A DNA stretch of 64,000 nt from Rhynchobatus australiae (taxonomy: Eukaryota), in NCBI GenBank assembly GCA_034780895.1, contig JAUZTB010000135.1, forward strand, positions 81,503,613 to 81,567,612, read 5' to 3'. Shown in pieces: positions 1 to 56,644 of this stretch. The notes under the pieces were generated by a model, which saw only the letters and a list, made by a program, of their open reading frames with translations, was not told the origin of the DNA and made no database searches. The translations under genes were made by a program, and so were the position numbers. Position 1 is the stretch's first letter; the number at the start of each line of letters is the position of its first letter.

Positions 1-254
1 TGGACATTAATGTGACAAAGGCAATAATACGGTAAGTGGAAGCAGATAAATGACCAGAGTCTATCCTTGGTAATCCAAAAATTGCAGTGATAGGATGAGG
101 TTGTAAATTAATATTCAATACAGTGAGATAATGTTAAAAATGTCTTAACCTGATGATTCCATTAAGATTGGAATCACCTGGACAACCCTGGTGTCACCCA
201 ATCATTTCTCCCCATCCTCTTTGCAACTTAAAAGTAACTTGTTTTCTTATTTTC

Positions 255-360
255 CCAGTTCTGCCAAAGGGTCTTCAACACAAAATGTTAACTCTTTCTC
301 TTTCCACAGATACTGCCTGATCTGCTGCGTGTTTCCACCATATTTATCATCTATTTTTAT
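255..360 (+). mobile_element. Short degenerate terminal fragment of the Penelope-like element, with a decayed hammerhead motif
   Basis: AGTT-CTGCCAA-AGGGTCTTCAACAC-AAAAT-GTT-AACT followed by ttccacagatactgcctgatctgctg, matching the terminal repeat at 27803-27900. Confidence 0.65.
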
Positions 361-10110: not shown

Positions 10111-13100
10111 TTAATGGCATCATCAAATCCCTCTCTCAAAAACTGTGTCATTTACCTCACTCAGTGCTTCATAATTCATAGCCTATTCACTTGCATAACA
10201 CTAGTCTCTATCAGTTAGAGCTCCTATGTAATATTCCTTCACACACTCTATTCTTCCACACCCACCTCTCAGCTATCATATCCCTCAGTCACTGCAAAAG
10301 GCTTACCAACATATTTCACTATCGCTTGAAGTAGAAGATGGTAAACAAACACTGCCAGTGACCATAGACAGGCTTTGGCAGGCACTTATCCATCAGTTGC
10401 GCCGGCCTGGGTAATAACCATCATAGGGGCCTCTAGTCAATGCTCAGAAGTGGCACAAATACCCATGAGTATGATGGAATGGGCCTATGGGCCTTCATTC
10501 TACACCCTTGCCCAAAATCCTCTGATTCCTTTAGATTAAAGCTGCTGATTTTATAAGGCTGTACCTGTTACTTATCCCCTCCACTTACTGCCACCATACC
10601 CTTCTGCCTTTCCTTTTTCAGAGAGTTTCTCAGTCCATGTATCTTACTGCATACAGTATTATGTGTCAATTAAACCATTTGCAAGATTAGGAAATTGTAT
10701 GTTCTTTTGTATGAGGCATCAAAATACATTTTGCTAATACATAAATAGAAAATGTGTTTCATGACTGGAGTTACAGTATGGAGCTGGAGGTAATGCTAAA
10801 GTATTCCTTCTGGTCGAGGATAGCAATTGAAATAATTTGTTATTTAACTATCAAAGATACGCCATGGGCCTGATTGTGCTTGCCTTTGGCTGGGATCCAA
10901 CTGGACTTCCCACTGAGTCCAGGGCAGTTTTGGATCATCCTGATCTGAGGGTTTGGATACGCTTCATGTCTGCCATGGCTGGTGTATCTAACATGGTCCC
11001 ATTCATTTGAATGTGGTTGCTGACCTTCATCATTAAGAAGGCAAGTGAAACATTTCCATTCCCTTGATTTCACTTTATATTTATGTGATATAAATTAGAG
11101 TAGTTTAATGTCATTTTAAAATATTTTAACTTAGTACATTCAACTATTTTTAAATGTCTGATCATTTGAGGGAGTTAGGAATAGTTGAAAAAGAACTTGA
11201 AGCCCTGGTTGTCAAAAGACCATCAGGGTGGTCTGAAGGCACATTCCACCATCTGAGGCCTATTTGCTGCTTGTGGACCACTTTACTTTGTAGAAGACCA
11301 TGCATGATAAGAAGCTTGACGGTTGTGAGATGCATATATGTAAAAGCTAATTGTGGCTACTGTAATAACGTGATCATATTTGAAGCACAGTATGATTTGG
11401 CCCACTGAATACTAGAAACAGCAAATAAGAGCAAATACTATAAATTCATAGCTAATTCTATGTAAAACAATCATTTAAATGAATTTAACATAATTAATAT
11501 ACATGCAAATATTCCATTAATATCTACAATACACATGATCATTAATATCTAGTTGAAACTTTGTTTCAAAAAAAGTTTGCTCATGTGTGCACATGCTAGT
11601 CTAAGTCTATGAAAGCTTTTTTACCATAAGAACACACAGATAATGTTTCCAGGAGCTGAAAGTGTGGTACAAACAGTAGATTGACCGCACTGGTGGCTTG
11701 GTCTGGGAAAAGTAAGTAGAGCCGAGTGCCTCCATGGATTGAAAATAAACAGCTAAATCCCTTGAGGCAGGAGACTGTTGAATGATCGAAATGCAAATGA
11801 TGTGTGAGCATGAATGAACAGACTTGGGTAGAGAACAGGTTTGAATAACAAAAGGTGGTTTCTTCATTCTGTAATTTGGACTATAGCAGTTTTGTTGAGT
11901 CTGGTAACAGATACCAGTTTGTCTACCTTCAATTTTATAAGGGCGTTACTATAATTATGATGTGACTGCATAGCCTTTGGTTTTAACAATACTGCATTTT
12001 GTTTATCTTTTATGAACAATTTGTAAAAGTCATGGATATTACCAAAATTGTTCTAATTGTTGTCCCCCTTAACTCAACCATATAGAAAGGGAAGTAATGT
12101 AGTTGGGGCTTTGTTGTTGTCACAGCTGCTAAAATAGATGGCCAGCATTAGGTGCATAGATATAAAGCATTGTAACATTTACTGTACAGATAAAAGGGGC
12201 ATGGAGAAAGGAAGAAAAAGTCATGTTCATTTTTACTTAATTCCTCATGAGAGCATCAGAGTTTTCAGAAGTTGGAAGCAGCCATTAAAGAAATCTGTTT
12301 ACACTGGGTAGATTTAATTCAAAGTAAAAAATCTGTTCACTTTGTCCAGAATTGCTCACTAGAGGTAGAAGCCTGGAACAAAGGGAAATATGGGAATTTA
12401 TAGTGTAGGACTGAAAATCCAAGGTTAGAAGATTGGGATTGCAAAAATATATATTTCAACTCCATAACTCCTGTTGTTTTGGAGTAAGATATGCTGAATT
12501 AATCAAATAAGGTGATTGGTGTGCACCATTTGTGGCTTATATAATGCTGAAAACCCTTTGATAAAGTTGTTGTTCTGTGCTACACCAAGCATTTGCTAGA
12601 AGTATGCAAGGTAGGCCCATGATGTTTTCTCTCTAGGCTGTATGTAAGAAATTTATCTCACTGCACTGTCAATAAATACAGTTGGAATTCATCATTCACC
12701 TTTTGTTCCAAATCTGTATTGCCTTTGTAATTGACCATCATCCTGACCACTTAGCTACATTGTTGACATGAAATCCAACACGAGATCCATGTTCCGAACC
12801 AAATTTGTAAATTGGAGCATGCCAAAATACCGACAAACATCAACTCATCGCCTTTTTTGCATTCCTTTAGTACCTATGTTCTGTGTGCTTTTGCAGCCCT
12901 TGCCCTTTTATACACTGCTCCCTCAGATACTAAAGCAAAGTTGATGGAAATGTGCTGAGTTTCAGTGCAGCAGATTGCAGATGGACTTTGATGAAGACCT
13001 TAAGCTCTGGACCTCAAAGATCGAGCTTTGTACTTCACCAACGTGGCAAGGTGGCAGTATTCTGGGCTGACTAGCTGAAAGGCAAATGCAAGGGCACTGC

Positions 13101-13607
13101 CTGAGTGCTGGTAATGGAATCATAATTACTGCCAAACTGAGGAAGGACTGCAAATTTGTGCTTTATGTGGCACGTGCCACTCCCCAATGTGATGTCTCAG
13201 TAATCTTTATGATCAGTGGGGGATTCTGGACTGCAGGCTGGCAGCCACAGACATGACAGTAGCAATCTGAGCTGGGAGCTGGAGGAGTCAAGACCCGCAG
13301 GGCATCTTCATCCCCATTCTCTTCTCGCTCTTCAGCATTGCCTAGCTGGTTTGTTGATCTTGGCTAACTGAAAGAGAAAAGGCACAAGGAACTTTTAAAT
13401 TAGAAAAGACTGTACGATAACTGAGAGCTTCGTAGTGAGAAGGAGAATTAATTCTCAGGATATTACTACATTAGAGGTCCTCCAGGTTACGGTAAGGCTC
13501 CATTCCTGTGAACTATTTGTAACTTGGAAATGCAGCCGAGAACTGAGTTCCCACATGGCAGAAGATGCCTGCAGCTGCTGGCCTAACCATACCTCCAGTC
13601 TCCCAAA

Positions 13608-13880
13608 TGGTAGTGTAGTGGTTAGTGTAACGCTATTTCAGCGCCATCGACCCAGGTTCAATTCTGGATGCTCTCTGTAAGGAGTTTGTACATTCTCCCC
13701 GTGACTGCGTGGGTTTCCTCCCACATTCCAAAGATGTATGGGTTAGGGAGTTGTTGGCATACTATGTTGGCGCCAGAAGCATGGCAACACTTGAGGGCTG
13801 CCCCCAGAACATTCTATGCAAAAGATGCATTTCACTGTGTGTTTTGATGTATATGTGACTAATAAAGATATCTTATCTTT
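13608..13880 (+). mobile_element. V-SINE (HE1-like), young subfamily
   Basis: tRNA-like A box (tagtggttag) and B box (ggttcaattc), V-domain gagtttgtacattctccccgtgactgcgtgggtttcctcc, tail ...gtgactaataaagatatc. Close relatives at 54508-54800 and 55143-55448. Confidence 0.85.
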
Positions 13881-14203
13881 CATAAGTCAGGCATTCTAAG
13901 CTGTGGAGGACCTGTACCACAGGTTCTACTGCACCTGCTGGTCCCCGACTTCATAACAGCCACTCCCAAAGTGGGCAGTGCAGTTTCCAGTTCTGTGTGA
14001 GATAGTGCAGCAGCACCCATGTCCTTCATTCTCCAAGTTGCACACAATCTTGCTTGCAAAAGAGTAGAAGGTACATCACTATATGTTGTGCTGTCTGTTT
14101 GGTATTATGACTGAATAATTTACAGTCTGTGCAGGTTGTGAGAGATGTTTCTGAGGTTTACAACAATGTTCTGTGAGTGAAGGAATGGGAACATCTGACT
14201 ATT

Positions 14204-14900
14204 ATCAGAATAGGGTTTATTTTCACTGACATTTGTTGTGAAATTTATTGATTTGCCGCAGCAATGCAGTGCAAGACATAAGACTATGACTATAAGTTAC
14301 AATAAATAAATAGTGCAAAAGAGGAATAATGAGATTGGTCCATGAAACCATGAGCACATTCAGAAATCTGATGGCAGAGGGAAAGAAGCTGATCCTAAAA
14401 CATTGAGTGTGGGTTTTCAGGCTCCTGTACCTCCTCCTCGATGGTAGTAATGAGAAGAGGGCATGTCTTAATGATGGAGGCTACCTTCTTGGTGGTATGT
14501 GATGGAGCTGGCTGAGCCTACTACCCTCTGCAGTCTCTTTCGATCCTGCACAGGATCGAAAGAGCGTCCATTCCAGGCAGTGATGCAACCAGTCAGAATG
14601 CTCTTAACCGTACATCTGTAGAAACTTGCAAGAGTCTTGGTGACATTCCAAATCTCCTCAAACTCGTTATGAAGTAGACCCGTTGGTATGCCTTCTTTGT
14701 GAGTGTATTAATGTGTTGAGCCCAGGATAGATCCTCAGATGTTGATGCCCAGGAACTTGAAACTGTTCACCCTTTCCACTGCTGACCCCTCAATGAGGAT
14801 TGGTGTGTGTTCTCCAGACTTCCCCTTCCTGAAGTCCACAACCAATTCCTTGGTCTTGCTGACGTTGGGTGTGAGGTTGTTGTTGCGATACCACTCAACT
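14204..14900 (-). mobile_element. Rex1/Babar-clade LINE 3' portion
   Basis: Minus strand reads VEWYRNNNLTPNVSKTKELVVDFRK. Homologous to 45330-45650 and 57190-57975. Confidence 0.8.
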
Positions 14901-15029
14901 ATTAATTAGGTAAGTTATCAATTAGGTACAAATCCTGATAGGATATTTTCTTAAGTAGATTATGAGGGTGTGATGCTCTGATCAGTGTTTGAGTCAAATT
15001 GTAAAGTTGATGGATTACAGTTCTTTAAA

Positions 15030-15400
15030 AATATAATGCAATACACAAAATGCTGGAGGAACTCAACAGGTCAGGCAGCATCAATGGAGGGAAATTGGCA
15101 GTCAACGTTTCAGGTCGAGACCCTTCATCTGGACTGAAAGATAGAGGGGAGATGGCTGGTATAAAAAGGTGGAGGGAAGGGGTAGAGCAAGAGCTGGCAG
15201 GCGATACGTGGATCCAGGTGGGGTGATAGGCAGATGGGGGAGGTGAGAGTGGGAATAGTGTCAGAAGCTGGGAGGTGAGAAATGGAAGTGACAAAGAACT
15301 GATGATGGTGGAATCTGATAGGACAGGAAGGTGGAGCATGGAATAAAGAGAAGGAGATGGGGAGGGTAGAGGGGAGGGCAGCCAGGGGAAGGAGTGTGAA
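15030..15400 (-). mobile_element. Penelope-like element terminal repeat containing a hammerhead motif
   Basis: Homologous to 59583-60050 and 27650-27937. Pyrimidine-rich on the minus strand, then the motif at 15099-15136. Confidence 0.8.
15099..15136 (-). ncRNA. Minimal type I hammerhead ribozyme motif (core variant CAGAUGA)
   Basis: Minus strand CAGUC CAGAUGA AGGGUCUCGACCU GAAAC GUU GACUG: perfect 5-bp stem I, stem II hairpin, palindromic ACGU stem III; U4 is replaced by A. Confidence 0.65.
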
Positions 15401-15529
15401 TCCCTGACCTTCACAGGATTTGTGATTTTTTTTTTCACTCCTCACCACATTGCTGCTAGTTTCTTGGGACTCAAATCCTTGCTTGTTTGCCATTGCTATC
15501 TCCCTCATTGTCTTCTGAGGGTGCAGGGA

Positions 15530-15670
15530 GAAGAAAATCTTGCCTTTCTATAATACCTTTCAGGAGGTCGCAAGCACTTTACAGTTAATCAAGCACTTTT
15601 GAATTGTATTCACTGTTACAAAGTAGAACATACGAGAGCACAGACATGTCTCACAAACAGCAAGGAATGT
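15530..15670 (-). mobile_element. DeuSINE (SacSINE1-like) 3' fragment
   Basis: Reverse complement resembles the 3' part of 31170-31290 (ctgtaaagtgcttgcgacctcctgaaagg...gcaag). Confidence 0.55.
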
Positions 15671-15909
15671 GGACAACATTCCTTTCTTGCCCTCTTCAAT
15701 TTGCTTTAGAGTTGAAATTGATCTTGGATAGTGGAAGCTGATTTTACAACCTGTTCAATTATTCCTTTCCATTTATTTCACAGTATAGAATGTTGAGCAG
15801 TGTAAGGGGGCTGTTAAACTAATTCCTATTTGAGATTATAGCTCAGTGTTTTTATTCCCTTCATTTTGTGCCCTTGTCCAATACAACTTCTCAGTCGTAA
15901 ATAAAAATC

Positions 15910-16080
15910 GAAAAAAGGTCAGATGCTAGAAATCTAAAATATAAACAGGAAATTCTGGAAATATTCAGCAGGTCAGATCTGACAAAGGGTCTCAGACTGG
16001 ACATGTTAACTCTGTTCCTCTTTCCAAAGATGCTGCCTGACCTGATGAGTGGTTCCAGCATTTTCTGTGTTTAATTTCAA
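15910..16080. mobile_element. Miniature fold-back derivative of the Penelope-like terminus
   Basis: Left arm aaacaggaaattctggaaatattcagcaggtcag is inverted to right arm ctgacctgatgagtggttccagcattttctgtgttt. A decayed hammerhead (ctgacaaagggtctcagactggacatgttaact) lies between them. Confidence 0.7.
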
Positions 16081-16985
16081 CTTCTCAACTGATACTGTAG
16101 TGTACTCATCCCCTATTACATCTAGCAGTTACTTTCAAGATACAGGCTAGGGTCTTATATGCTTTGTCTCAATCCCAAGGCCTTCCCATTAGTTCCCCTT
16201 GCTCCTTTTAATGTGTCCATTATTGCCAACTGATGGTTTACTCTCAGCTCTTGATCTTCATGTAACTAGTTCACAGGCTCCTGCAGTCATATTCTAAAAT
16301 CCAAATAATGTTTCCCTGAAACCCTCATTTTCTTTGTTACTTCTCCCTAAAAACTCTTTTTAAAAATTTTTTAGGCTCTGCTTTTACTTCTCATGCCAAT
16401 TTTTCTGCAATAATGTTCCTATTCTCAATAGTTTACTTCGCGTTACTTTTGGATGTAACCTTTCCTTCTGCCTCCCTGGACATTCTGTCTTTGCCATCAC
16501 CTCAATGGCTGCTTATAGAAACACCATGAGCTTATACTGCTTGATATATAAACTATTGTTTATTGTTTGTTTTAGTTGTCCATGTATTTACTGAAATAAG
16601 GAAGTAAAAAATTCTGCCTATAAAACTTTCAAAGATAGCTAGTCAATATTTGATCTCTTTGGTGAAGCTAAGCTGCCAGTTTTCCAAACCTGGAAGCAAT
16701 TTCCAACAGTAAAGTAAAAGTATCACTACTCTAGTCCCATTGTAACTCTATTTGTGCTATTGAAGCATTGAAAATTTATGATATGAAAGCTAAGTTCTAT
16801 GCACATATATAGGCAGGTATGCACAGAGTTCTCTTATGCTCTGCTGGTTTGAGCAGAAAACAACTGATTATTTTGTGTCATCATTGGTTACAAATTTTAC
16901 AACTTTATTTTAAGAGATCTTTCTCGGAAATTGAGCCTTCAAAGTTTCTGAGCTGTCATTTTTGTTTTAATTATTTATTATGCAG

Positions 16986-17104
16986 ACGTGGGACATCGAA
17001 CTGGAAAGGTCTTCAGAAGCTTGGGCTTCACAGTGTCTCTGGGAGCATGGACCTGGTTATCTCCTACCTTCTATAGGGCAGAATCTGGGTGCACACTGGG
17101 GCAG
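16986..17104 (+). CDS. CRISPLD1: CRISPLD1 exon 3 (CAP domain)
   Basis: [39 protein letters not shown](R); cag| acceptor, |gtattg donor; 119 nt. Confidence 0.97.
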
Positions 17105-17210
17105 GTATTGTATGCAAGAGAAGACCAAAATAAATTTAAATTGTTTCAGCTGTTGTGTGTAAGCTTTGTCTTCAAAAATTATGTATTTGATTTTCATGTT
17201 AAATCCACAG

Positions 17211-17343
17211 ATACCGGCCTCCTACATTTCATGTTCAAGCTTGGTATGATGAAGTTAGAGATTATATATATCCTTATCCTCAAGAATGTAACCCTTGGTG
17301 TCCTTTTAGATGTGTTGGTCCAGTGTGTACCCATTACACTCAG
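17211..17343 (+). CDS. CRISPLD1: CRISPLD1 exon 4 (CAP domain)
   Basis: [44 protein letters not shown]; 133 nt, after a 106-bp intron. Confidence 0.97.
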
Positions 17344-17544
17344 GTATGGTTAACTTAAGTAAGAGGTTTATGTGGATACTATTTTAAGTAAAGCTGCATA
17401 AAATTGATTTGAGCAGTCCTAATTTGGCTTCCTAAAGTAAAACTGACACTTGGTTGGGATTTTTACTGTGGTACATAGTGTAGGGAAATTGGAATACCAG
17501 ATGTTCTAAAGAGGCTGTGAATAAAACGAAATACAGTTTCTCTC

Positions 17545-17900
17545 TTATTATGATTTCCAGAATGTCAGGGCATCCTAAAGTGCTTTACACCCACAACAAA
17601 ACTTCTGTCCTCATAATCCAAGAAACACAGTAACCAATTTGTTTACAGCAAGCTTCAAAGTGTGACAGTGACCAATGTTTCTGTGTTTTTTGGCTAAACA
17701 TTAGCCATATTCAAAGGCAAATTCCTCTTCCCTTCTCTGAATACCATTGTGGAATCTTTTATGTTACCCTGAGAGGTCAAATGGAAGCTCTGTTTAATTC
17801 CTTATGTGAAAGTAGAGAATTCCCTTTATACTGAATAGATTATGTCTTGAGTCATTGGAGTGGGTCTTTTGAGAAGTGGGGGTGTTACTATTTGAGATAA
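17545..17900 (-). mobile_element. DeuSINE (SacSINE1-like), degenerate
   Basis: Similarity by eye to the reverse complement of 31020-31290 (catcctaaagtgctttac, ccaatttgtttacagcaagct, gaataccattgtggaatctttta). Confidence 0.55.
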
Positions 17901-18889
17901 ACTTGAGAGAAAGTGTGCCATATTGCATCTGATCAATAAATCTGATCTGTATTCTGTGATACAAAGTTCCTGAAAGAAAGAAAATGTTCCATCACAGGGA
18001 ACTTGGGTCCATTATCTAACTGACCATGTGGAAAAAAAACATTAATTGTGGTATTAAACTGCTTTTTTTCTATAATTTCTGTTTCAATGATGCTCACTTC
18101 GGCCTTTGCACATTTATAAAGAACTTCTGGTATTTGATATTAAACTTAGAGATAAGTTTCCTCACCACTTGTGTTTGAGGAACACATCTCTTCCAGACAT
18201 ATAGCCACCCATTTAATATTGCTCAGTGGTTTCTGGGGAACCTCCTGATATGATTGATGGCCTAGCAAATCACAGGAAACAGGAGGGTGTGCAGTTCAGG
18301 TTCTTGCCTCACTTGCCTCACTTCCCTCACCCAAAACCCATTTTAAGAGCCACCTAGCAGGGGGTTTTGGTCCTGCACTCAGACACCTGCAAAATAAATA
18401 ATCAAAATCGGCATATAACTTAAAACAAAAGGAAAATATTTTCCCTAAGGGCTCCTGGAGATCATATTTTCACTTGAAAGATATCAATGTTGATTACGCT
18501 GAATAATTGCCAGTGGCTTGGACAGGGCTGAAAGTCTGTGCATTATCATTTCTGTTAGTGACATGCTGAGCCACCTGCCCTGCCCTGTTCGTTAGGTCCC
18601 AGGTATTTTGCTAGTCTTCTGCCTCCAAGTTCCTGTAAAGCTGTTACTTTTCCCTTGAGGAATGGTAGAACTAACAATTCAGGAACACATGCCTGCAGTT
18701 AATTAGCTCCTTGATCTCTTGGTCATTCTCAAGAAACAATCCCTGTTCCTCTTAGTAGAGCAACCTAGAGTCCCTTTGTAGGTGTCAATCATGGTGGACT
18801 TCAGGGCAGCCGATATGCCGTAAACACTCTGCAATTCTTGTTTGCTTGAAGTTCACAGATTGACTATGAGATAGTGAATGAGGGGAGTT

Positions 18890-19520
18890 TCCTTTGGAGG
18901 GTACTTGAGAACGTGTATGCTGATCTTCCAATATCTAGACTATCTATGGCGGGTACCTCGTGGCACTGGAAAGATATCAGCAAAGCTGTCTTCACAAAAT
19001 CCTTCAAGGTCAATGGAAAGATAAGCAAACCAATGCCAGTGTCCTCTCCCAAGCCAATGTTCATAGCATTGAAGCCCGAGTTACACTTAGTTGACTCTGT
19101 GGGCTGGCCAAGTTGTTAGCATGCCTGACACCAGACTCCCAAACAGACACTTTATTCCTTGCTCTGTCATGGGAAAACGGAGGAAAAGGTTCAAGGATGT
19201 ACTCAGAACATCTTTGGAAGAATGCAGCATCCTCACTGACTCATGGGAACTCTTGGCACATGACCACTCAAAATGGGAAAGCAGTATTAGGGATGGGATT
19301 AAGAACCTCCTATCCATGTATAGGAGCACACAGAAACCCTACATAAATGGCTGAAAGAGGGCACCACCTCACAAATTGCACATTTGACATTTCCTATGAC
19401 ATCTGGTGAGGCTGCAGTTCACACATGGACCTCAACAGTCACCGCAAAACCCATTTAGATATAAAAAGAGGAGTAACAAGTCATCCCGAATCTTAAGGGA
19501 CTGCCTAGGATGAAAAATAA
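18890..19520 (+). mobile_element. RTE-clade LINE 3' fragment
   Basis: ORF 19091-19354 has RLPNR...GKRRKRFKDVLRTSLEECSILTDSWELLAHDHSKW, the typical RTE C-terminal region. Confidence 0.75.
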
Positions 19521-19628
19521 CTGTCATTATAGTTTGGCTGATATGATTCTGATATGATTGTGCCTTTTTGTAATGTGAGCATGCTGTCAGGTGCAATGTA
19601 AATTTCTTTTATATTTTCTTTCTTTTAG

Positions 19629-19744
19629 GTAGTATGGGCAACAAGTAACAAAGTTGGCTGTGCCATTAATTTATGTATAAACATGAACATCTGGGGTCAG
19701 CTGTGGGAACAAGCCGTCTACCTAGTTTGCAATTACTCCCCTAA
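19629..19744 (+). CDS. CRISPLD1: CRISPLD1 exon 5 (CAP domain)
   Basis: [38 protein letters not shown](K); 116 nt; tag| and |gtgagt. Confidence 0.97.
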
Positions 19745-21168
19745 GTGAGTAAAACTAGAAAAACATAAAAGTGAAACTGTGATGGTATATTTCTGGGAAC
19801 TTATATAAAATTTCACACCGTTTTCTGAGGAATGTAAAATGCCTGTGATTTGCCAATTGTAATGGTGCTTATTATATTCTGGTTACAGAATTAACCTGAA
19901 AACCACATGTAATTTATTTTCATAAGGTTTTGTATAAATGACATTATAGTTAACATTTCTGAAGTATTCATATAATTGCACATCTAACACGAGGCATCAC
20001 TTCCGGTATTTGAATTAACCTGAGGGCTAGAAATTGTACCAAGTTTGAATAGCAGCACTGCATGAGGCCATTTCATCTTTGTGAGAGGCCTAAACTGACA
20101 CGCATCAATAGGGTATGCTTGTAGGTTTGATTGTCCACAAAGCCTATTCATCTACAAGCTTTCACTATTGGACACCTTGCAGAGCTAAATAGTTAGGCAG
20201 TGAAATGGGATTGGGTGTGTTTACAGATGAATGGTACTGTAGGCGGTTTGGGATATAATTGTTGAGGGAGGAAGGTGGATTGACTCAGAGGGTATTGATT
20301 GTTTGCTTTGAGATTGGGGTTATTGGGGGAGAAAGGGGCATTGGCAGCATGATGATGGTGCATGGAAGAAGATGGATACTGTGGACTCCCTGGTTGTAGC
20401 ATATGTCAGGTTGGGATTCCTTCACCTAATGCCAAAGTGGGCCACAACCTTTTAGTTGAGGCTTCTGCCATTCCTGGGCCTTATAAACACAGAAAACTTT
20501 TGTGCAAGTGACACAACAATGTGCGTTGCAAGCTGTTTGATGCCACTACATTTGTCCATTGGCCATGTACCTTGCAGGATCTGGAACAAATCACAGCACA
20601 CCCAGAACTAAACTGCACTTAGTGATTGGATTGTTTAAGAAAACTCCATTGCCTATTGTGCAAAAATTTTGCACGAGACATAGACTTTCTAGGCCAGTGA
20701 GCATTACAAGCATTTGGTGTTCATGAATGAGGTCCATGGTGATTTTGTAATCTTGAATTTTAGTTATTAATAATCAAATTGTATTCTCTAGGTTCTGATG
20801 ATCATCTGAACCTTTCAGTTGCATTATTTTCTAGTGTTTATTCCTTCATATTTATCATTATCATTGTATCTACTTACAGCAATGCAATTCTGGCTGATTA
20901 TACACGAAAGGCAGATATCTTAGAATGTGATATATTCTAATACAACATCTTATTTGGTGATGTTGTAAAATAACAATAGTAACTCCCATTTTTTCATATC
21001 TCCAGTCAAAGAAAAGGTGATTTGAAAAGAAAAACATTCAGTGAAAAATGTGTGAGGAAAAAATACATTTTTGGTTGTGCTGGAAAAATCATTGTGTAAT
21101 GTAATGAACACTCCTCTATAAAACGTGATTTTTTAAAAAAAATATACATATATGCTTATTATTTTCAG

Positions 21169-21269
21169 GGGAAACTGGTGGGGCCATGCTCCTTATAAAC
21201 ATGGACCTCCCTGTTCTGCCTGTCCTCCAAGCTATGGAGGAGGCTGTAGGGATAATCTATGTTACAAAG
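21169..21269 (+). CDS. CRISPLD1: CRISPLD1 exon 6 (CAP C-terminus / hinge)
   Basis: [33 protein letters not shown]; 101 nt; cag| and |gtatgt. Confidence 0.97.
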
Positions 21270-22357
21270 GTATGTGCTATTGGCTTTCTTTGCTTTATAA
21301 ATCTTTGAATATTGTTTATAAGCCATGACATTAATGATCCTTTACACATACCACACCTATGTGTGAATATTCTAAATATTGATCTTATTGTAAATTCCCT
21401 ATAACTTAAGTAAATGCATATGAAATTCTTCTATTTGCATTTGTGATTTGTATTGTTTGCCACATGAGTGGAATGTAGATTAAAATATCTCAGATGTTTG
21501 GGAAGTTTTTTAGTCTTCTGTATTTAAACTAATGTGGCAGGAACAGTATGTTACTGAATATGGAATACTTTGTCATAATTAATTGGAGGATCAGATTTTT
21601 ATACAGTTTTGAAGGAGAATTAAATAGGTGTTTGAAACTGATCTAGAGGTTTAGGGAGCGCATTGGGAAGAAGAATTAGTTTTGAATTGCTTCAGTAAAG
21701 GGCAGGCACAAATATAGTGGGTGAAATGACTCTTCCGTACATCTTCTGTACATCTTTGAACTACCATGTTTAGCCTGGCTATAGGCCTTTTCATGTGGTA
21801 TCTGCACAGAACATAGCAAAAGCTTGAGAAAATGCTGTCAGGCAGAACTNNNNNNNNNNNNNNNNNNNNNNNNNNNNNNNNNNNNNNNNNNNNNNNNNNN
21901 NNNNNNNNNNNNNNNNNNNNNNNNNNNNNNNNNNNNNNNNNNNNNNNNNNNNNNNNNNNNNNNNNNNNNNNNNNNNNNNNNNNNNNNNNNNNNNNNNNNN
22001 NNNNNNNNNNNNNNNNNNNNNNNNNNNNNNNNNNNNNNNNNNNNNNNNNNNNNNNNNNNNNNNNNNNNNNNNNNNNNNNNNNNNNNNNNNNNNNNNNNNN
22101 NNNNNNNNNNNNNNNNNNNNNNNNNNNNNNNNNNNNNNNNNNNNNNNNNNNNNNNNNNNNNNNNNNNNNNNNNNNNNNNNNNNNNNNNNNNNNNNNNNNN
22201 NNNNNNNNNNNNNNNNNNNNNNNNNNNNNNNNNNNNNNNNNNNNNNNNNNNNNNNNNNNNNNNNNNNNNNNNNNNNNNNNNNNNNNNNNNNNNNNNNNNN
22301 NNNNNNNNNNNNNNNNNNNNNNNNNNNNNNNNNNNNNNNNNNNNNNNNNNNNNNNNN

Positions 22358-22645
22358 AAAATAGATGTGGTGAAACCTTTTCTCCCAGAGGATCATGATT
22401 CTTCTTCAAAGGAAGCAGAGTCTCAGCATATTTTTACGATAGATTGATTCTTGATAAACAAGGAGTAAAAGTTACTGGGGTAGGCAATGATGCAGATTTG
22501 AGGCGCGTTGCTTCTAATAACCCATTATTTCTTCAGATGCATGCCACACTCTTTACAATAAGATCAGCCATGGTTGTATTAAATGATGGAGTAAACTTAC
22601 GGGGCTGAGTGGCCTTTCTTGCTCCTAATTCGTACATTTGTATGC
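22358..22645 (+). mobile_element. CR1 LINE 3' end, next to an N gap
   Basis: Tail agatcagccatggttgtattaaatgatggag...ggggctgagtggcctttcttgctccta is typical of chondrichthyan CR1 3'UTRs. Confidence 0.65.
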
Positions 22646-23279
22646 ATGTTTAGAAATCTCACTTTAGGTGAGATTGGTCCAGACATTGGATCATTTGAAA
22701 CAATTTCAATTTAAAGAAAAAGTCAATTAAATGAAAATTACGGACTTTCTCCCAGCTTTGTTCTGCAGCTTTTTATTCCTTTGTATATTTGGCATACACA
22801 GAGGACCCTGAACATGTGTGTTGGTGGCTGGTGTCCGTGCAGTGCACACCTGGCTGCCACTTCAGTGGTTTTGATCCACATGCATGACCCAGGTGTGCAA
22901 GTGGCACTCACACATAAGCAGGCTTTCAGACTGCACAATCTGGTGCCTCAATACTGACAGGGGACATGCTAGACCAGGCCCTCGGCTGTGGAATCTGGTA
23001 CTGGAAACCCATCTCAGGTTCATCTTTAACTAATGTGTTTCATAGATCTTCAGTAAAAAGGGGAAAATATACCCAAAATAGCCTTAATCCTGATGGCCAC
23101 CTTTGTGTGTGGCTGCATCAAACTGTGTGTAGAGCTAGAGTATGTAAACACCATGTGTCACTATGTGCTGAGGTTTTACCTGTCCCTGATATTGCTAAAG
23201 TTGGGCCTGACTTAGTTCCATTTAGTTGAAGCTTGTCGCCCCACCTGACCTTGTAGCATGGAATGTCTTGGATACCTTA

Positions 23280-23745
23280 TGGGAGAAGGGAATGGTTCCG
23301 TGAGTTGGCTGTCAAAGCCATTTGGCAGAATCCCTCATCTCCAGAACTCTCAAAAAAGAACCAAGACCTCACGTGGCTGGCAGTGGGAGGGGTCCTGCCC
23401 ATCAGATCCTTCATGTCTGGTCCTCAATCACATTGCACGCTGCTCATGAGAAGGCTGCAGTGTGAATGAGGTGATTATCTACCTCCTTTTGACTGTGCTG
23501 TTGCCACAAAGGTCTGGAATGAGATGCAATGGTCCTTGTCGAGGTTTGCCCCAGGCAGCTGTGTAACAGAAGACTCTGTGATCCATGGCTTGTTCCCACT
23601 GAGGCAAACCGACAGCTGCTGGAAGATGATCAACTCAGTGAAAGATACAGTATACTTAGGGTCTGCCTGAAACTTGGTCTTCCAGTATAAGGAGATGTCC
23701 ACAAGTGAATGTGGCCAACCGGCATATTCCAAGGTGTAATGGAAG
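23280..23745 (+). mobile_element. L1/Tx1-clade LINE C-terminal (zf-RVT region) remnant
   Basis: AVKAIWQNPSSPELSKKNQDLTWLAVGGVLPIRSFM, then CVTEDSVIHGLFP and WKMINSVKD. Confidence 0.55.
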
Positions 23746-24185
23746 CACTGAAGCTTGGTTCTTCAGTTCATCCTCACTCCCAGCAATATCCAGGCCAGCC
23801 CTCACCTTCTACCTGATCCCCAGGTCACTCCTTGCCTGACCTACTGACCTCCACGTCTATTGTTGCTCAACCCTCATGATGCAATCTAACTCTTTGTCCC
23901 GAACTTTTCCCCACCAAATGAGGCAAAGCTAATGTGCCCTTCATTATTTTTAATTGTACACTTTCCACATTTATGACCTGGAACAACAAGTGGTGAAATG
24001 TGCAGACGTACCAAAGTTCACCTTGATTAAACTTGGTTAACAAAAAACTCATGGTTACTTATGGCTTGCTCTCACTAACAAGACTCATTTTGGCAGATAT
24101 TTCTGTAGCACCGAAGGACAGTTTAATGAACTTAAGAAAAACCTTGTTTGTTTTTCATCCTTTTTCATTTTTGTTTCATCTGAAG

Positions 24186-24356
24186 ACGATGGAACAGATC
24201 GCCGCTATTCTCCTTCAGAACCGGAGGAAGAAACTAATGAGGTTGAAAGACAGAGGACTAAAACTCACGAAACACAATTGAATACGCGGACACGAACAGA
24301 TTCCATGAGAACCGAGCACCTTGATGCAAATGAGATTATAAATACCCAACAAATGT
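24186..24356 (+). CDS. CRISPLD1: CRISPLD1 exon 7 (linker)
   Basis: (D)DGTDRRYSPSEPEEETNEVERQRTKTHETQLNTRTRTDSMRTEHLDANEIINTQQM; 171 nt, phase 1-1; pyrimidine tract plus aag| acceptor, |gtaaga donor. Confidence 0.9.
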
Positions 24357-24409
24357 GTAAGAACAACTTGCTTTGTACTCTAAAACGAAGGCAAGATAAA
24401 ATGGGCACA

Positions 24410-25120
24410 GGAAATGTGAAAAGAAAATACTGCAGGACAGCCAGGTTTTGTGTGTGAGAGAAACGGTTAATGTTTCAGGCTATTTATCTTTCTTTAGAAA
24501 TGAAGTTTGGGAAGTTAGAGGTTTTAAAATGGGACAGGATCATGGAAAGGGGAACAGAGGAAAGAACAATAAAGTAGGTCTCTGAAAGGATGGAAGGTGG
24601 GGAAAATAAATGACAAGGGGCGATTGTGCAAAATAGAAATAAATAGTGACGGAACAAATAAAGATGCAAAAATTGATCCTGAGGAGGTGAAAATTACAAC
24701 AGAGTAATAATTGCTGAACTAGAAATCTTGTTCTGAGTTTCACTGGTATCATATGAGAAGTCAAGAGAGGTTTGAGCAAAACATAGAAAGCAAATTAAAA
24801 TAGACAAGTGAACAGAAAGTTCAGGGACACTCTTGTGGGTTAAACAGGGTTGTTCAGCAAGGCTATCAGCCAAGTTGTATGTGAGGTGTCTTTGTGAATT
24901 AGCATGAGAGTATAACAGATTGAAAGCAGTAGAATATGTGCTACTGGAAGGGGTATTTGGCACTGTGAATAATGGGAAGAGAGATTGAAAGGATGGTCAT
25001 GAGTAGGGGAAAAAGATACTTCAAATGAAAGAACTATTGACTGGATTGATGTGGAGGGATAGTAACTTTGGAATGCTGTAAGAAGAGGGATATGTTTTGC
25101 AGTGCCATCTTTCCATATGA
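24410..25120 (-). mobile_element. Old, degenerate Penelope-like element 3' fragment
   Basis: gagagaaacggttaatgtttcagg...ctttctttagaa is a decayed reverse hammerhead region, followed by a purine-rich + strand block as in 59583-60600. Confidence 0.5.
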
Positions 25121-25448
25121 TTATGAGAACTAATTGGCACAATTCATAAATCTGAGTTTACCATTTATTCTAAAATTGCTTGAAGGTTACTGCTGCTTTG
25201 TGTCATTATCCTGTGAAAGGCTTGGGTGGTGGAACAAATACATTAGGTGAACATAAATTTAGTTTCACACTTCTTTTGATTGTAAAATGTGCATTTTCTT
25301 CAAATTATAAAATCCCAAAGTAATAATAACTTCTTAAGAGCACAAGACTGTATTTGCTGAGTAATTGAGTTGCAGATGCCTTGGGACACCACAGCTATTT
25401 TAAAACTGATCCAGAAAAATCTCAGTCATTTCATTGTTTCTTCTACAG

Positions 25449-25509
25449 CTCAGTTGGTGTCCTGTGAAACCAAACTACGCGACCGATGCAAGGGAACAAC
25501 TTGTAATAG
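25449..25509 (+). CDS. CRISPLD1: CRISPLD1 exon 8 (LCCL-1 start)
   Basis: (S)QLVSCETKLRDRCKGTTCN(R); 61 nt. Confidence 0.95.
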
Positions 25510-25758
25510 GTGAGAAATGGAGGCAAAACCCATTTTCTATACCAGTTACTAAACTAACAAAATAGTGTTTAAAATGCTTATAATCCTGTTCGGTTTAAAT
25601 TTATACTGATTGACAATGAAGCACTTTTTTTTTTCAAGCATTCTTTTCATTGGAATTCTGATATATCAAGCAGAAATTCATTGTTCTAGGCAAAGTAACA
25701 ATATTGTAAAAGGGAAGTAGACAAGGACATAACATTAATCTTATTTCACTTCTTATAG

Positions 25759-25825
25759 ATACGAATGCCCGGCTGGTTGCTTGTATAGCAAAGGAAAAGT
25801 AATTGGGACTCTGCATTATGAAATG
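25759..25825 (+). CDS. CRISPLD1: CRISPLD1 exon 9 (LCCL-1)
   Basis: YECPAGCLYSKGKVIGTLHYEM; 67 nt. Confidence 0.95.
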
Positions 25826-27139
25826 GTGAGTTTAAAAAAAAATGAAGAAATAGTTCAATGGTGTATTAGATTCGTATGGTAGTCAGTTTAGTTTGTGAAG
25901 TTTTGAAAACATAGAACTCATTCACTTACTACAATACAAAAGCAGTTTACCAGGATTTCTATCGACAAATTGTAACTAATCTGCAATAATTATTCTTAAT
26001 GTAATATTTACAACATTTATACTATATTAGCATTTTCTTGTTATTTTAGAAATAACATCAGATTGATGATCAACATCTGACTGAAAAATTTCTAATTTTT
26101 GCACTTTCTTTACAGGCTTTATTGAATGAGAATTTGATTTGTGGCTACCAGTTTCCTTGCCTTTACAGAGAGCATTAGATACTTAAATTTTGTATCTGGG
26201 CCTAGTGTGCCCAAACTGCATCTAATACCATATTGAATTTGATAGTTTTTAGTCATTCGAGCTAACAGGTGAAACACTTTGTTTTATATTGGAAAACAAA
26301 CAGACCTATTAATTTCCATATTTAATCATGTTCACTTGCATAATTAATGCAATCTATATAAAAAGTGGAATAAACAATTGGTGAACTCCTTTTCCTAGCC
26401 CAATAGATGTTGTCAACCTGGAAAGAGAAGAAGGGAGGGACAAGGCATTAGTGACAAGGTTAGCAGAGATAAATGAGTGGCAGCTGAAAGAAGCACCACC
26501 CTGTCATGTGGGGAAGAAAGAGGAAGAGAATTCCTCTGACTATGTCACATATTGCATTTCTGATTTATCTGTTAGTTCCCGTGCGGCCTTGCCTAATGTG
26601 CAGTGGATTTGCAGGGACAGTGACCTACTTGCTGCTCACATTTGCTCCCTGGTTTTGTCAATCAGTTCGTTCTGAAGAAGGGAGGAGTGCTACTGGATGC
26701 CCTGCTGAAAGATTCTTAAGATGTGCACACCAAGACAAAGTATTTGTGATTAGTGCAGAGGTGGTATAGATTTGGTGAAATAAGGGAGTGACTGTAAGGG
26801 CAGCAGCAGCTGCAGATTGTGCCAGCATCATCAAATGGAGATATTGTTTCTGTTACTGTTGCAGAGGAAAGGGAAAGCTCAGCAAAATATTGAGAATACG
26901 GAGGCAAAAGGTGGTACAGGACAAAAATCAAGAATCAGAGAGATGCGACGAGGAGCCTTTCCTGAGCACACCTGAAACTGTTGTTGAATTTGTTGGAAGA
27001 TTGCAGTCAGGCTATGGCTGCATTGCACTGCTGCATCTGACCACAACTAATTGTGTCAGTGATAACTTCATCTTATTGAAAAACAGTGTGATGCTGGAGG
27101 AACTCAGCAGGACAGGCAGCATCCGTGAAGAAGAATAGG

Positions 27140-27177
27140 CGGTCAATGTTTCGGGTCAGGACCCTTCTTCAGGACTG
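27140..27177 (-). ncRNA. Minimal type I hammerhead ribozyme motif with intact CUGAAGA/GAAA core
   Basis: Minus strand CAGUC CUGAAGA A GGGUC CU GACCC GAAAC AUU GACCG; one mismatch in stem I and one in stem III. Confidence 0.7.
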
Positions 27178-27802
27178 ACGATAGGAAAAGGAGAAGCCCA
27201 ATATATAGGAAGGAAAAGCAGAACAATTATAAGTGGACAGACNNNNNNNNNNAGAGGTAGATACAGGTGAGAGATAGTAATAGGCAGGTGCAGGGGAGGA
27301 GGGGAGACCAGACCAGGTGACCATCTCGCAGGACACCTGCGCTCTGTCCGTAACCACGATCTGTATCTCCCCATTGCCAGTCACTTCAACTTCCCCTCCC
27401 ACACTATCACTGATGCGTCAGTCCTTGGCTTCCTCCACTACCAGGAGAATTCCAAGCACAAACTGGAAGAACAGCACCTCAGTTTCCACCTTGGAACCTT
27501 GCAGCCAAACAGCATGAACATTGAATTCTCCCATTTTAAATAATCCCCACCTCCACCTTCCCCACAAGCTCCCTCCTCCACCATGCTTCTTCTCTTCTTC
27601 CCTTTCCTAGCCTTTTTTCTTTTCTCTCCTCACCTTTGACCCATCCCCCAGTGGATCTGGTCTCCCCTCCTCCCCTGCACCTGCCCATCACTATCCCTCA
27701 CCTGCATCTACCTATCACCACCTTGTGCCTCTGCTCTTTTGTCCACCTATCACTGCTCTGTTTTTTCCCTCCTATATATTGGGCTGCCCCTTTTCCTATC
27801 TT

Positions 27803-27839
27803 CAGTCCTGAAGAAGGGTCCTGACCCAAACGTTAATTG
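27803..27839 (+). ncRNA. Hammerhead motif, probably inactive (G12 missing)
   Basis: CAGUC CUGAAGA A GGGUC CU GACCC -AAAC GUU AAUUG. Confidence 0.6.
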
Positions 27840-28466
27840 CCTTCTTTTCTCCACGGATGCTGCCTGTCCTGCTGAGTTCCTCTAGCATCGTAATGTTTTT
27901 CATCTAGATTCCAGCATCTGCAGTCCCTTGTTTCTCTACTTCATCTTATTGGCTGAAAACCTCCTTGTGAGGACCTCTGGAATTGTGCCTGAAATTTAGA
28001 CAAAAAAGTAGTTGTCCACTTGATGGGCTATATTGCAATCAAGGAAAAGGATTTCATCAATGTCTTACTTCCATACTTCCACTTTTTTTTTATATATATT
28101 ACGTTGATTTATACTGATGAACAGTGTTTAAAATGGAAATTAGTAGGCCTCATGGGAATGATTCAAAAATGGAAAGTACTTTAACGTTACCTTTCAGATG
28201 AGACTAAAGCTGGCTGTTAATATCCTAATTTAAATGATGCCTTTTGCTCACGTCATTAGATACATTTATCAACTAGCCCAATTTAATGCTTATTTTTAGT
28301 GCAAGTTGAGTTTCCCTGCCCCCTTCCCTATTTTCTGGTCTATAGTTAGGTATCTATATAATCTTTGGTAATGGCATGCTTAAATGTAACAGTGTTCTGT
28401 TTAAGATAGATTCCCACATACCGTACATAAATTGATAATACTCTTTATTTCATGTGTACTTCTCAG

Positions 28467-28597
28467 CAATCAAGCATTTGTAGAGCTGCAATGCATTACG
28501 GAATTCTGGACAATGAAGGTGGTTGGGTAGATGTTACCAGACAAGGAAAGAAGCCATTTTTTATAAAATCCAACAGAAATGGGATCCAATCAGTTGG
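28467..28597 (+). CDS. CRISPLD1: CRISPLD1 exon 10 (LCCL-1)
   Basis: [43 protein letters not shown](G); 131 nt. Confidence 0.97.
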
Positions 28598-29592
28598 GTG
28601 AGCGTTTGTGACTTCAATTGAAGCCTATTTGTACACCAATGCAAAGAAGTCATTAATTAGGGCTCTACTGTGACACTATTACATGTGCAGCTTCAAAATG
28701 AGAGACCAGGAGTGTTGAATTTTCCTCTAAATCACTTAATGTCCTTTTGAATATTTGTTCTGCATAGTGTGTACATTCAAAGGACCTGAAGAAATTAGCA
28801 GCCGTGAAAATCCATGAGCACAGATTAGAGCAGTCTTTCATTAATCAAGTCTATTAGCACTCTCTATCACTGAGTCGTGGAGGAGATGAGTGAGCTTGGG
28901 GTGTAACAGTGGGGTATTAGTGTGATGCTGTGAGAGGGTAGAATGTTTACTTGAGGCTGGAAGATGCACCTATCACTGAGTACACCTTGTACCTGAGTAC
29001 ACTGAGTGAACCTTGCTGATCAATACTGCCAGAAGCTCCAGAGTTTTGTACCAAGTGAGCAATTGTCCAAACACTCAATCCCACTACTCCCAACACCACT
29101 GAATTCCTGCCAAGGACCCTTTGCAGTCTCACCACCTTCCTGCAGAAGCAATGTAGTCAGCTTCCTGATCACAGAGCAGAGTCTAAAATTCAAAAGGTTG
29201 AGGGTCCACGATGTTTCATAAACAGACTCCCTTTTATCCAAAGGACTCATTACCGCCCTTTTACACCTCATACCACAAGGGGCTCTAGTCTACTGTCTGA
29301 CACTGGGACTGCTGAGGGAATCCCATTGTGCAGAATGCTAAACGTGAAGGCAACTAGAGGGAAAGGAAAAGGAACGGGGCTGAGGTGTGAAGGAAAGGCT
29401 GTGAGATTAAAAAGAGAGGAGGTGAGAGAAGAAAGAGAATGCAGGAGAAAAGTTAGAAGGAAGTGTTTAAAGAAGTATCAGAGATGAAAGTTTTTATAAT
29501 TGAATTGATTCAAAGATTATTCCCCACTCTATATTTGATTATGGTTTATAGATTTTCATTCTTCAGCTAACATATTTCTTCCTTTGTTTCAG

Positions 29593-43444: not shown

Positions 43445-43625
43445 AGTAAAAACACTGCTGCAAATACTCGTCAAGTAAAACATCTGTGGAGTGTGAAATA
43501 GCTTTAATCATGCTGTCAATAATCTTGCATCAGTACTTGTTTCTCTTTCCACAGATGATGTCTGACCTTCTTAAAAATTTCCAGCACTATGTTTTTATTT
43601 TAAATTTCCAGCATCAGCAGCATTT
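43445..43625. mobile_element. Degenerate miniature fold-back Penelope-terminus derivative
   Basis: catctgtggagtgtgaaatag is inverted to tttctctttccacagatg; ends ttccagcatcagcag. Confidence 0.55.
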
Positions 43626-45329: not shown

Positions 45330-45650
45330 TGAGTTGGTGCCTGAAGAAGGTGGCATCCATCATTAAGGACCCTCACCATCTGGGACATGCCCTCTTCACA
45401 TTACTACCATCGGGGAGGGGGTACAGGAGCCTGAAGACCCACACTCAATGTTTTAGGAACAGCTTCTTCCCCTCTGCCATCAGATTTCTGAACGGTCCAG
45501 GAACCCATGATCACTACCCCATTATTCTTCTTTTGCACTATTTATTTATTTTGTAACATTGTAATTTTTATGTCTTTGCACTCTACTTTGCTGCAAAATA
45601 ACAAATTTCATGGCCTATGTAGGTGATAATAAACCTGATTCTGATTCTGA
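45330..45650 (+). mobile_element. Rex1-clade LINE 3' end
   Basis: CLKKVASIIKDPHHLGHALFTLLPSGRGYRSLKTHTQCFRNSFFPSAIRFLN, then tail aataaacctgattctgattctga. Confidence 0.85.
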
Positions 45651-49760: not shown

Positions 49761-50422
49761 ATGACAAAGAAACAACTTGAATGTTGCCCCCATGGTTTTT
49801 GAGCAAGCTTAGAAATGGGTGTTGTTGGCCGTTTGTTGTCACTATGCATTTCCAACAATCCTTGTGTGTTGGTGCATGACATTCATGGAAGTGCCGATAA
49901 CTATTTTGTGTGGTCCAAGGAGAGAGCTATTTTGCCAGTGTTGCACAATGCGTTGGCATAGTGTGAGGCTCGCAGTGCTAGGGCACTTAAAAATAAATGG
50001 TACGTAATAGGATTTCTAGGCAAATGAATCTACAGATGACTCTGAACCAACAGAACAGCAGTCATTTCCGTAGACCTGTTAAGTATTTATTTATACAGTA
50101 TAACTGGCTGTGATTTATATTAACATCATGATATTTAACAACTTATACTGAGCAGAGTAAATGTTGTAGGAAAATACGACTCATGGTGGAAGACTTCCTC
50201 TGTGATTTTTATGATGTAAAATAATAAATGTGTTTTTAAGAAATGGGTTTTGGAATCTGCCACAGGGAACATTTTCATCCACGGTGTGCAGAGTCTTTTC
50301 TCCTGGATCATCATTACTATGAATATTTGACAACAGTGAAAGACATTTTAGGAGTTTGGGTGGAGAGAAAAATTGCATCTGATTTTTATATAACTAGGGA
50401 TAAAAAATAACTTCATTCTCAT

Positions 50423-50976
50423 GAAGGAGGAACAACACCTCATATTCCGCCTTGGGAGTCTCCAACCTGATGGCCTCAACATCGATTTCTTTAACTTATG
50501 GTAACCCCATCCCTTCTTNNNNNNNNNNNNNNNNNNNNNNNNNNNNNNNNNNNNNNNNNNNNNNNNNNNNNNNNNNNNNNNNNNNNNNNNNNNNNNNNNN
50601 NNNNNNNNNNNNNNNNNNNNNNNNNNNNNNNNNNNNNNNNNNNNNNNNNNNNNNNNNNNNNNNNNNNNNNNNNNNNNNNNNNNNNNNNNNNNNNNNNNNN
50701 NNNNNNNNNNNNNNNNNNNNNNNNNNNNNNNNNNNNNNNNNNNNNNNNNNNNNNNNNNNNNNNNNNNNNNNNNNNNNNNNNNNNNNNNNNNNNNNNNNNN
50801 NNNNNNNNNNNNNNNNNNNNNNNNNNNNNNNNNNNNNNNNNNNNNNNNNNNNNNNNNNNNNNNNNNNNNNNNNNNNNNNNNNNNNNNNNNNNNNNNNNNN
50901 CTGCCTGACCTGCTGAGTTCCTCCAGCACTTTTTGTGTATTGCTCCAGATTCCAGCATCTGCAGAATTTCTTGTGC
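50423..50976 (+). mobile_element. Penelope-like element 3' end spanning an N gap, with probable 12-bp TSD
   Basis: KEEQHLIFRLGSLQPDGLNIDFFNLW*; terminus ctgcctgacctgctgagttcctccagc...cagcatctgcag; flanks cttcattctcat (50411-50422) and cttcactctcat (50977-50988). Confidence 0.85.
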
Positions 50977-54832: not shown

Positions 54833-55142
54833 AACATTGAAGACCAGGTCTTCAGTCATATAGTCAGGTAATGCAGCAACTTGTACCTATGGGACACACA
54901 GCTCGTAGCATACTGCAAAACCCTCTCCACCTATCAAGGTGGTGCCTTTCAGTACGTGCCTTCATCAACTCCTCCCTAGCAATGCCCTCATGGTGATCAC
55001 AAATAAATTACAAAGTAACTTTCAAGGCACTGATGATTGTTTACTGCTAACTCTCCCAAAGAACATGCAATAGCTGAAAAACACTTCAATCACACAATAA
55101 ATGTGTGCCTGCACTGCAACCTCATTGGCATTATGAGGGTCC

Positions 55143-56635: not shown

Positions 56636-56644
56636 TGTAATCGA

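Follow-up and report, generated by a model that had tools for sequence, protein, structure and literature searches.

Minimal hammerhead motifs of a Penelope-like terminal repeat, probably of the Neptune clade, in Rhynchobatus australiae

A motif of about 38 nt recurs in a 64,000-nt stretch of Rhynchobatus australiae DNA (contig JAUZTB010000135.1, positions 81,503,613-81,567,612; the window), and one copy, at 27140-27177 on the minus strand, resembles a hammerhead ribozyme. The locus raises the questions of what kind of motif this is, what carries it, and whether the copies seen here could still act. In our reading, the window copies are very probably decayed minimal hammerheads that belong to a Penelope-like element (PLE) and lie within its 3' terminal repeat; the element is likely of the Neptune clade, and the copies are likely inert.

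The motif and its copies

Related sequence was present at all seven sites listed in the initial annotation, and the seven stretches could be aligned with one another and with a common downstream segment of ~70 nt. A profile built from four long copies matched the window in 13 pieces, among which are six of the seven sites. The remaining site, 24467-24500, was not matched at E ≤ 1 by this profile; a second profile, from the build of which it was itself excluded, matched it at E = 0.016, and it reads as a weak, very decayed member. The reported recurrence at seven sites therefore holds, weakly at this one.

A descriptor was written that required CUGANGA, an optional extra base, a stem II of at least 4 bp, GAAA-NN-U-H, and a stem I of at least 3 bp. 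It matched the window exactly once, at 27140-27177(-); when the window was resampled 100 times under a first-order Markov model, one resample contained any match (mean 0.01). The parts of the matched copy are as follows.

27140-27177, minus strand: best minimal hammerhead; stem I formed by 27177-27173 and 27144-27140 (3 bp, a mismatch and 1 bp)
27172-27166, 27165 and 27152-27149, minus strand: core, consisting of CUGAAGA, the extra A and GAAA
27164-27153, minus strand: stem II
Between 27145 and 27144, minus strand: predicted cut, placed by hammerhead numbering

All 11 core letters of CUGANGA...GAAA...UH were kept in this copy, and 8-10 of 11 in the other six: one mismatch each at 27803 (G12 deleted), 15099 (U4) and 24467 (G5), two at 59680 and at 15979, and three at 257. 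The base between positions 9 and 10.1 was present (A27165), and the 10.1-11.1 pair was G-C (or G-U) in five of the seven copies, A-U in one, and unpaired in one. The defect of the 27140 copy is a C.A mismatch in place of C-G at 15.2/16.2, by which the ACGU palindrome needed for helix III of a dimer is lost. In duplex energy calculations AACGUU paired fully with itself (-3.5 kcal/mol) and the letters of the 27140 copy did not (+2.8); because of the mismatch, this copy is unable to self-dimerise. The initial annotation was thus right that every copy is defective and that the core at 27140 is the best.

The palindrome at 15.2/16.2, with no helix III loop, read CG in two of the seven window copies and TG or CA in five, the result of CpG decay. 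In contigs from four runs, G occupied position 16.2 in 64-74% of the depth, restoring the palindrome; the family therefore has ACGU, and the 27140 copy lost it by CpG decay. A loopless palindromic stem III, as annotated, is accordingly a property of the family but not of the 27140 copy.

The features of a canonical type I hammerhead (a 6-bp stem I, contacts between loops 1 and 2, and a helix III hairpin) were not found, and helix III is loopless. None of the 10 Rfam matches at E ≤ 10 was to a hammerhead, and the folding energy of the 38-mer was no better than that of shuffles (z = -0.29); both results are uninformative for a motif without helix III. The published consensus of minimal hammerheads in PLE terminal repeats comprises CUGANGAH, a conserved nucleotide that separates 9 from 10.1, pairing of G10.1 with C11.1, and a palindromic 15.2/16.2 (Cervera and De la Pena 2014, PMC4209133), and the window motif fits it as CUGANGAH-G..C-GAAAN-palindrome-NUH. 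The comparison supports a minimal type I hammerhead in a PLE terminal repeat, here in a cartilaginous fish. Both the kind of motif and its carrier had been named correctly; their novelty is not supported, the motif type being already known from minimal hammerheads published for Neptune, Poseidon and Xena. The extra A after A9 had been likened to the CChMVd hammerhead; it is instead a conserved part of the PLE consensus as given in PMC4209133.

The carrier element and its clade

The best motif lies in one 5'-truncated PLE unit (27079-27937) with an exact 14-bp target duplication on each side. An inverted arm, which holds the best motif and has no tail, is joined to a direct 5'-truncated arm with a tail; 5' truncation, an adjacent inverted copy and an optional tail of 30-40 nt are characteristic of PLEs.

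27065-27078, plus strand: left target-site duplication, 14 bp, identical to 27938-27951
27079-27312, minus strand: inverted 5'-truncated terminal-repeat arm without tail, stopping 66 nt beyond the predicted cut; contains a 10-N gap at 27243-27252
27301-27530, plus strand: C-terminal fragment of the GIY-YIG endonuclease in the direct arm (tblastn, 51% to protein P0002 288-369, E=5e-19)
27540-27937, plus strand: direct terminal repeat, with pyrimidine-rich 3' region, hammerhead, downstream segment and tail
27803-27839, plus strand: hammerhead in the direct arm, G12 deleted
About 27901-27937, plus strand: tail of the direct arm, ~37 nt
27938-27951, plus strand: right target-site duplication
4619-41027, plus strand: CRISPLD1-like host gene (CAP + LCCL), about 14 coding exons mapped by tblastn

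Since the 27140 and 27803 motifs are two arms of one insertion, they are not independent copies, and since they lie on opposite strands, they never both occur on one strand. The arms are identical at 139 of 160 positions (13% diverged), so the insertion is old. It sits in an intron of the CRISPLD1-like gene, between the exons at 25748-25831 and 28440-28598; the gene is on the plus strand, and the best motif is thus antisense to the pre-mRNA. Core letters are missing in both sense intronic copies (15979 and 27803). Taken together, the C.A mismatch, the sole neighbour on the other strand and the antisense orientation make it likely that the 27140 copy is inert. Upstream of the host gene, at about 3.5-4.5 kb, lies a GC-rich region.

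The other copies in the window are listed below.

247-346, plus strand: older-subfamily copy; stem I AGUU/AACU, three core changes
15038-15425, minus strand: tailless solo copy of the terminal repeat, matching the 59.6-kb copy at 76%
15099-15136, minus strand: hammerhead in the solo repeat; U4>A, AACGUU palindrome intact
15894-16087, plus strand: older-subfamily unit, short and inverted, in which a reversed downstream segment meets the decayed hammerhead at the 5' edge of stem I; 10-bp flanking duplication at 15884/16078
15974-16011, plus strand: decayed hammerhead of the 16-kb unit, followed by the downstream segment
24432-24500, minus strand: very decayed weak member, E=0.016
43449-43622, plus strand: short inverted unit, very decayed
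50367-50983, plus strand: endonuclease C-terminus, gap, downstream segment and tail; assembly gap 50519-50900 at the expected place of the hammerhead
54347-54504, plus strand: short inverted unit of an older subfamily; hammerhead without stem II
56642-56750, plus strand: downstream segment and tail, no hammerhead
59589-62045, minus strand: longest PLE copy, 5'-truncated and frameshifted; part of the reverse transcriptase, CX4CxxC linker, GIY-YIG/CCHH, 3' terminal repeat and tail; possible 7-bp target duplication at 59582/62046
59680-59718, minus strand: decayed hammerhead of the longest copy, U4 and G5 altered, beginning some way past the ORF stop, at a distance of about 340 nt
63005-63119, minus strand: palindrome of two downstream segments that meet head to head, with the joint exactly at the stem II loop; no CUGANGA half, left arm broken by a 42-N gap

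Pieces at 15920-15976, 43449-43622, 50901-50983, 54347-54504, 56642-56750 and 63005-63119 were absent from the initial annotation. The window holds no intact tandem element and no head-to-tail hammerhead units of the retrozyme kind, its copies being dispersed or inverted. Two classes of 3' end, 35-37 nt apart, occur among the copies: those at 27140 and 15099 reach 66 nt beyond the predicted cut, those at 27803 and 59680 about 97-103 nt; these classes, together with the 14-bp duplication, match the published PLE tail and inverted copy. The downstream segment at 27089-27123 and its homologues contain a small UGCUG/CAGCA hairpin, are more abundant than the hammerhead, and are equally conserved across subfamilies; the segment is a candidate protein-binding or priming element. 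Other repeats in the window include a SINE-like family (13609-13879, 53443, 54502-55445), which is partially duplicated in tandem at 54.5-55.4 kb, with an N gap intervening, and fragments of other retroelements with LINE-like reading frames (14301-14868, 45331-45550, 57388-58184; 1090-2413).

The coding remains were examined in the longest copy, in which the broken frames of 59.6-62.1 kb give a partial reverse transcriptase (RT), a CX4CxxC linker, and a GIY-YIG endonuclease ending at 60057. The endonuclease has an internal CxxC and two histidines; about 185 central codons of the RT are absent relative to an 803-aa relative. By tblastn, 59.9-61.7 kb and 27.3-27.5 kb matched ray proteins and full-length RVT_1 + GIY-YIG proteins. 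The closest named proteins over the endonuclease end were from Mobula (83%), Hypanus (77-80%) and Rhinoraja (70%) (five matches among 126 candidates), and longer relatives numbered 85 of 3112 candidates, most with RVT_1. Pfam found nothing relevant in eight frames of the window, the fragments being too broken, and found both RVT_1 and GIY-YIG in each of two full-length relatives. A CKRNKCYTC-type linker and a CxxC between GIY and YIG were present in all four ray proteins checked. The order that defines endonuclease-bearing PLEs, an RT followed by a C-terminal GIY-YIG with CCHH, is thus found here, in the window in a frameshifted copy without its RT centre and in the full-length relatives with both domains. 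A downstream ATG-CTG-CCT-GAC was considered as the start of the ORF and rejected as unsupported, the N-termini of three full-length relatives being unlike it. Stretches derived from the PLE also occur in two RefSeq-type ray gene models, P0004 and P0071 (neuromedin-U receptor 1, NYAP1-like), where they are probably annotation run-through.

The clade was assigned by the linker. A CX2-5CxxC linker lies between RT and endonuclease, as in Neptune, and is common to Nematis; PMC8557442 describes such a zinc finger in Neptune and Nematis and its absence from Penelope and Poseidon, and the PLE clades reported for vertebrates in a preprint are Neptune and Poseidon (bioRxiv 10.64898/2026.07.22.740005). 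The two together make Neptune likely, an assignment that depends on a linker motif rather than on an RT tree.

Among 38 candidate stretches, one distant relative (L015, CBDHDM010000009.1) was a PLE with an intact minimal hammerhead, on an Endozoicomonas MAG contig that is likely animal host (coral-type) DNA in the bin. Its protein is 49% identical to that of the ray element, and its flanks gave no match to the ray repeat profile. It has one descriptor match, ~130 nt after the endonuclease, with the same core and with stems that differ and are nonetheless paired; the motif differs by one loop letter from the published Acropora Neptune motif. This single comparison across lineages offers the best evidence for selection. 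Pattern scans for further copies gave none in viral contigs and none in genome contigs, a protein scan of viral contigs gave none, and 14 matches in metagenome contigs were dropped as chance, all matching the 20-nt pattern only.

At the 5' edge of stem I, all copies have a run of pyrimidines with CAG at its end. It looks like a splice acceptor, and in D. virilis Penelope an intron ends at this position. CA is invariant there, G is present in six of seven window copies, and the upstream sequence is 64-88% pyrimidine; L015 has no AG at this edge. The CAG may be considered a candidate splice acceptor, as in D. virilis Penelope.

Abundance, conservation and competing readings

The claim of a high-copy family was supported: in all four runs, from four organisms, 12,727 to 28,465 contigs per run aligned to the 203 bp of 27040-27242, although depth in these runs does not equal copy number. 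In each of the four runs, the only letters of the core region that varied at 5% of depth or more were the CpG sites 27147/8 and 27152/3; 27140/1 in stem I varied likewise. The window copies also decay mainly at CpG sites. In the contig comparison, the downstream segment equalled the core in invariance and exceeded it in abundance. With the downstream segment equally invariant, and with short contigs on one subfamily forming a biased sample, what these data show is neutral decay and not selection. Among the window copies, differences numbered 10 of 77 cells (13%) in the core and 36 of 210 (17%) in the downstream segment (p=0.47), row 63050, the 5' half of which is the inverted arm, being excluded from the core counts. 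The excess conservation of the core that had been proposed as a check is therefore absent among these copies. The window copies show no selection on the fold, as expected for dead copies.

Covariation was examined in the same alignment. Paired cells made up 81% of the stems (8 of 500 shuffles), and the covariation score exceeded the shuffles weakly (14 of 500). Two pairs had a change on both sides, one of them real. The pair next to the core in stem I was C-G in three copies, U-A in three and unpaired in one, a change that is likely a single subfamily event. The compensatory variation reported for stem I comes down to this core-adjacent pair, and the number of pairs with two-sided change does not exceed the shuffled expectation (100 of 500).

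Three other readings were weighed against decayed PLE hammerheads. That the resemblance arose by chance in an ordinary repeat seems barely credible, even though Rfam and folding energy were unremarkable and covariation among the seven copies was weak: the rate of descriptor matches in resampled windows, the location in a PLE terminal repeat, and the L015 motif, with its shared core and differently paired stems in the same place, already largely refute it. It is very unlikely that selection has retained the 27140 copy for a role in the CRISPLD1-like gene, whether as a ribozyme or as a regulatory RNA made antisense from the intron. The intact core, kept while its arm diverged from the sister arm, would favor such retention, but private changes were one of 38 inside the motif and eight of 106 outside (p=0.26), and the copy was chosen as the best of seven; its broken palindrome, its antisense orientation and the lack of a same-strand partner nearby also tell against it.

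A third reading, which is compatible with that of decayed PLE hammerheads and which we hold possible but doubtful, takes the motif as mainly an RNA boundary or structure at whose stems the RT ends or folds back, with cleavage dispensable and with hammerhead-plus-downstream modules of ~100 nt spreading as short, often inverted, non-autonomous units. The palindrome at 63005-63119 is centred on the stem II loop, and the joint of the 16-kb unit falls on the 5' edge of stem I. In the contigs, six of 10 inverted or go-back joints (among the 15 of 17 joints listed) have an end at 27174-27177, as do eight of 12 further joints listed (of 20), and in the anole element hammerhead mutants were without effect on insertion in vitro (PMC11167929). 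Each joint, however, is represented by one or two low-depth contigs among more than 12,000 per run; the reference is of a single subfamily, and the upstream sequence of the others diverges near the same place and may bias joint positions; and the catalytic core is kept in the 49%-identical relative, which favors chemistry over shape alone. On balance it is a tentative proposition, rather improbable at present, that in sharks and rays the hammerhead-plus-downstream module of a Neptune-type element has turned into a short, very abundant mobile unit in its own right, with ends and inversions set by the stems and not by the cut site. If it were true, shark and ray genomes would amount to an extensive natural archive of where PLE reverse transcription terminates.

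Two further kinds of joint were noted. Eight of the 12 listed run from 27175-27177 to 27137-27143, joining one strand of stem I to the other across 1-7 letters; each is a single low-depth contig, and they represent either tandem duplication of the ribozyme alone or fold-back. Rare head-to-tail units of 88-98 nt (27174>27077, 27177>27090) consist of hammerhead and downstream segment, like very short retrozymes.

Comparison with known systems

Placement of minimal hammerheads in PLE terminal repeats, with cleavage as dimers, as stated in the initial annotation, is the published model (PMC4209133). According to that paper, a lone minimal motif does not cut and two motifs pair through the palindrome and cut slowly; the Schistosoma motif had no activity as a monomer and weak activity as a dimer. 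By analogy, the RNA of an active tandem ray element would carry two motifs, the AACGUU palindromes of which would pair as helix III; the paired motifs would cleave slowly after GUU/GUC, probably aided by the element's protein. Such cleavage, if any, would take place in the tandem transcripts that intact elements at other genomic sites produce. Since the copies seen here run on for 66 or about 100 nt beyond the predicted cut, the template RNA was likely uncut at the motif, and reverse transcription may have started at one of two internal sites, as in the anole element.

According to the published account, fishes, lamprey, coelacanth (about 4,000) and Xenopus (about 9,000) carry minimal hammerheads in their Xena, Poseidon and Neptune elements, and most of these copies are solo or on opposite strands (PMC4209133). 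The portions of its table and alignment examined contain none from cartilaginous fish. Our literature search found no paper on a PLE hammerhead family of sharks or rays, one supplement of PMC8557442 contains no shark names, a whale shark paper has Penelope among its listed repeats, and the 2026 preprint gives a count of tandem repeats with hammerheads for one chondrichthyan genome (bioRxiv 10.64898/2026.07.22.740005). The present results thus extend a known pairing of ribozyme and retroelement to an abundant elasmobranch family that is unnamed in the literature searched, the comparison being with papers. They touch on the question of why PLEs keep a hammerhead that seems dispensable for insertion. 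A genome in which several subfamilies are present in very many copies is good material for that question; the window copies, being dead, add little.

The ray motif resembles the published minimal hammerheads of PLEs (PMC4209133) in CUGANGAH, G10.1-C11.1, GAAA, the loopless palindromic 15.2/16.2 and the short stem I, and also in the U-rich upstream flank, the terminal-repeat location, the mostly solo or inverted truncated copies, and the opposite-strand pairs 100-700 bp apart. It differs from those described there in its short stem II, of 4-5 bp with a 4- or 2-nt loop. The Acropora digitifera Neptune hammerhead (PMC4209133, Table S1, Fig. S3) shares the core and spacing, and is linked to the ray family through L015 by motif and by the 49%-identical protein; its stem letters differ, and the 3' region is ~340 nt in the ray and ~130 nt in L015.

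The anole element Poseidon_Ac (Frangieh et al. 2024, PMC11167929) is the experimental system with which the ray copies can be compared. In the published experiments, cleavage required the element's protein, insertion was unaffected by mutations of the hammerhead core, and reverse transcription began at two internal sites, the spacing of which equals the optional tail. The ray copies are alike in the terminal-repeat hammerhead, the two 3'-end classes, the optional tail of 30-40 nt, and, probably, the origin of copies from uncut RNA. Poseidon_Ac belongs to the Penelope/Poseidon clade, which lacks the linker zinc finger seen in the ray element; the ORF of Poseidon_Ac begins inside stem II. The animal non-LTR retrozymes (PMC7229834; bioRxiv 10.64898/2026.07.22.740005) also carry type I hammerheads, related to those of PLE terminal repeats, and one of nine Xenopus retrozyme dimers was cleaved according to the preprint. 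Retrozymes, as described there, form head-to-tail arrays of mostly canonical hammerheads, whereas the ray copies in the window are scattered or inverted and their hammerheads minimal.
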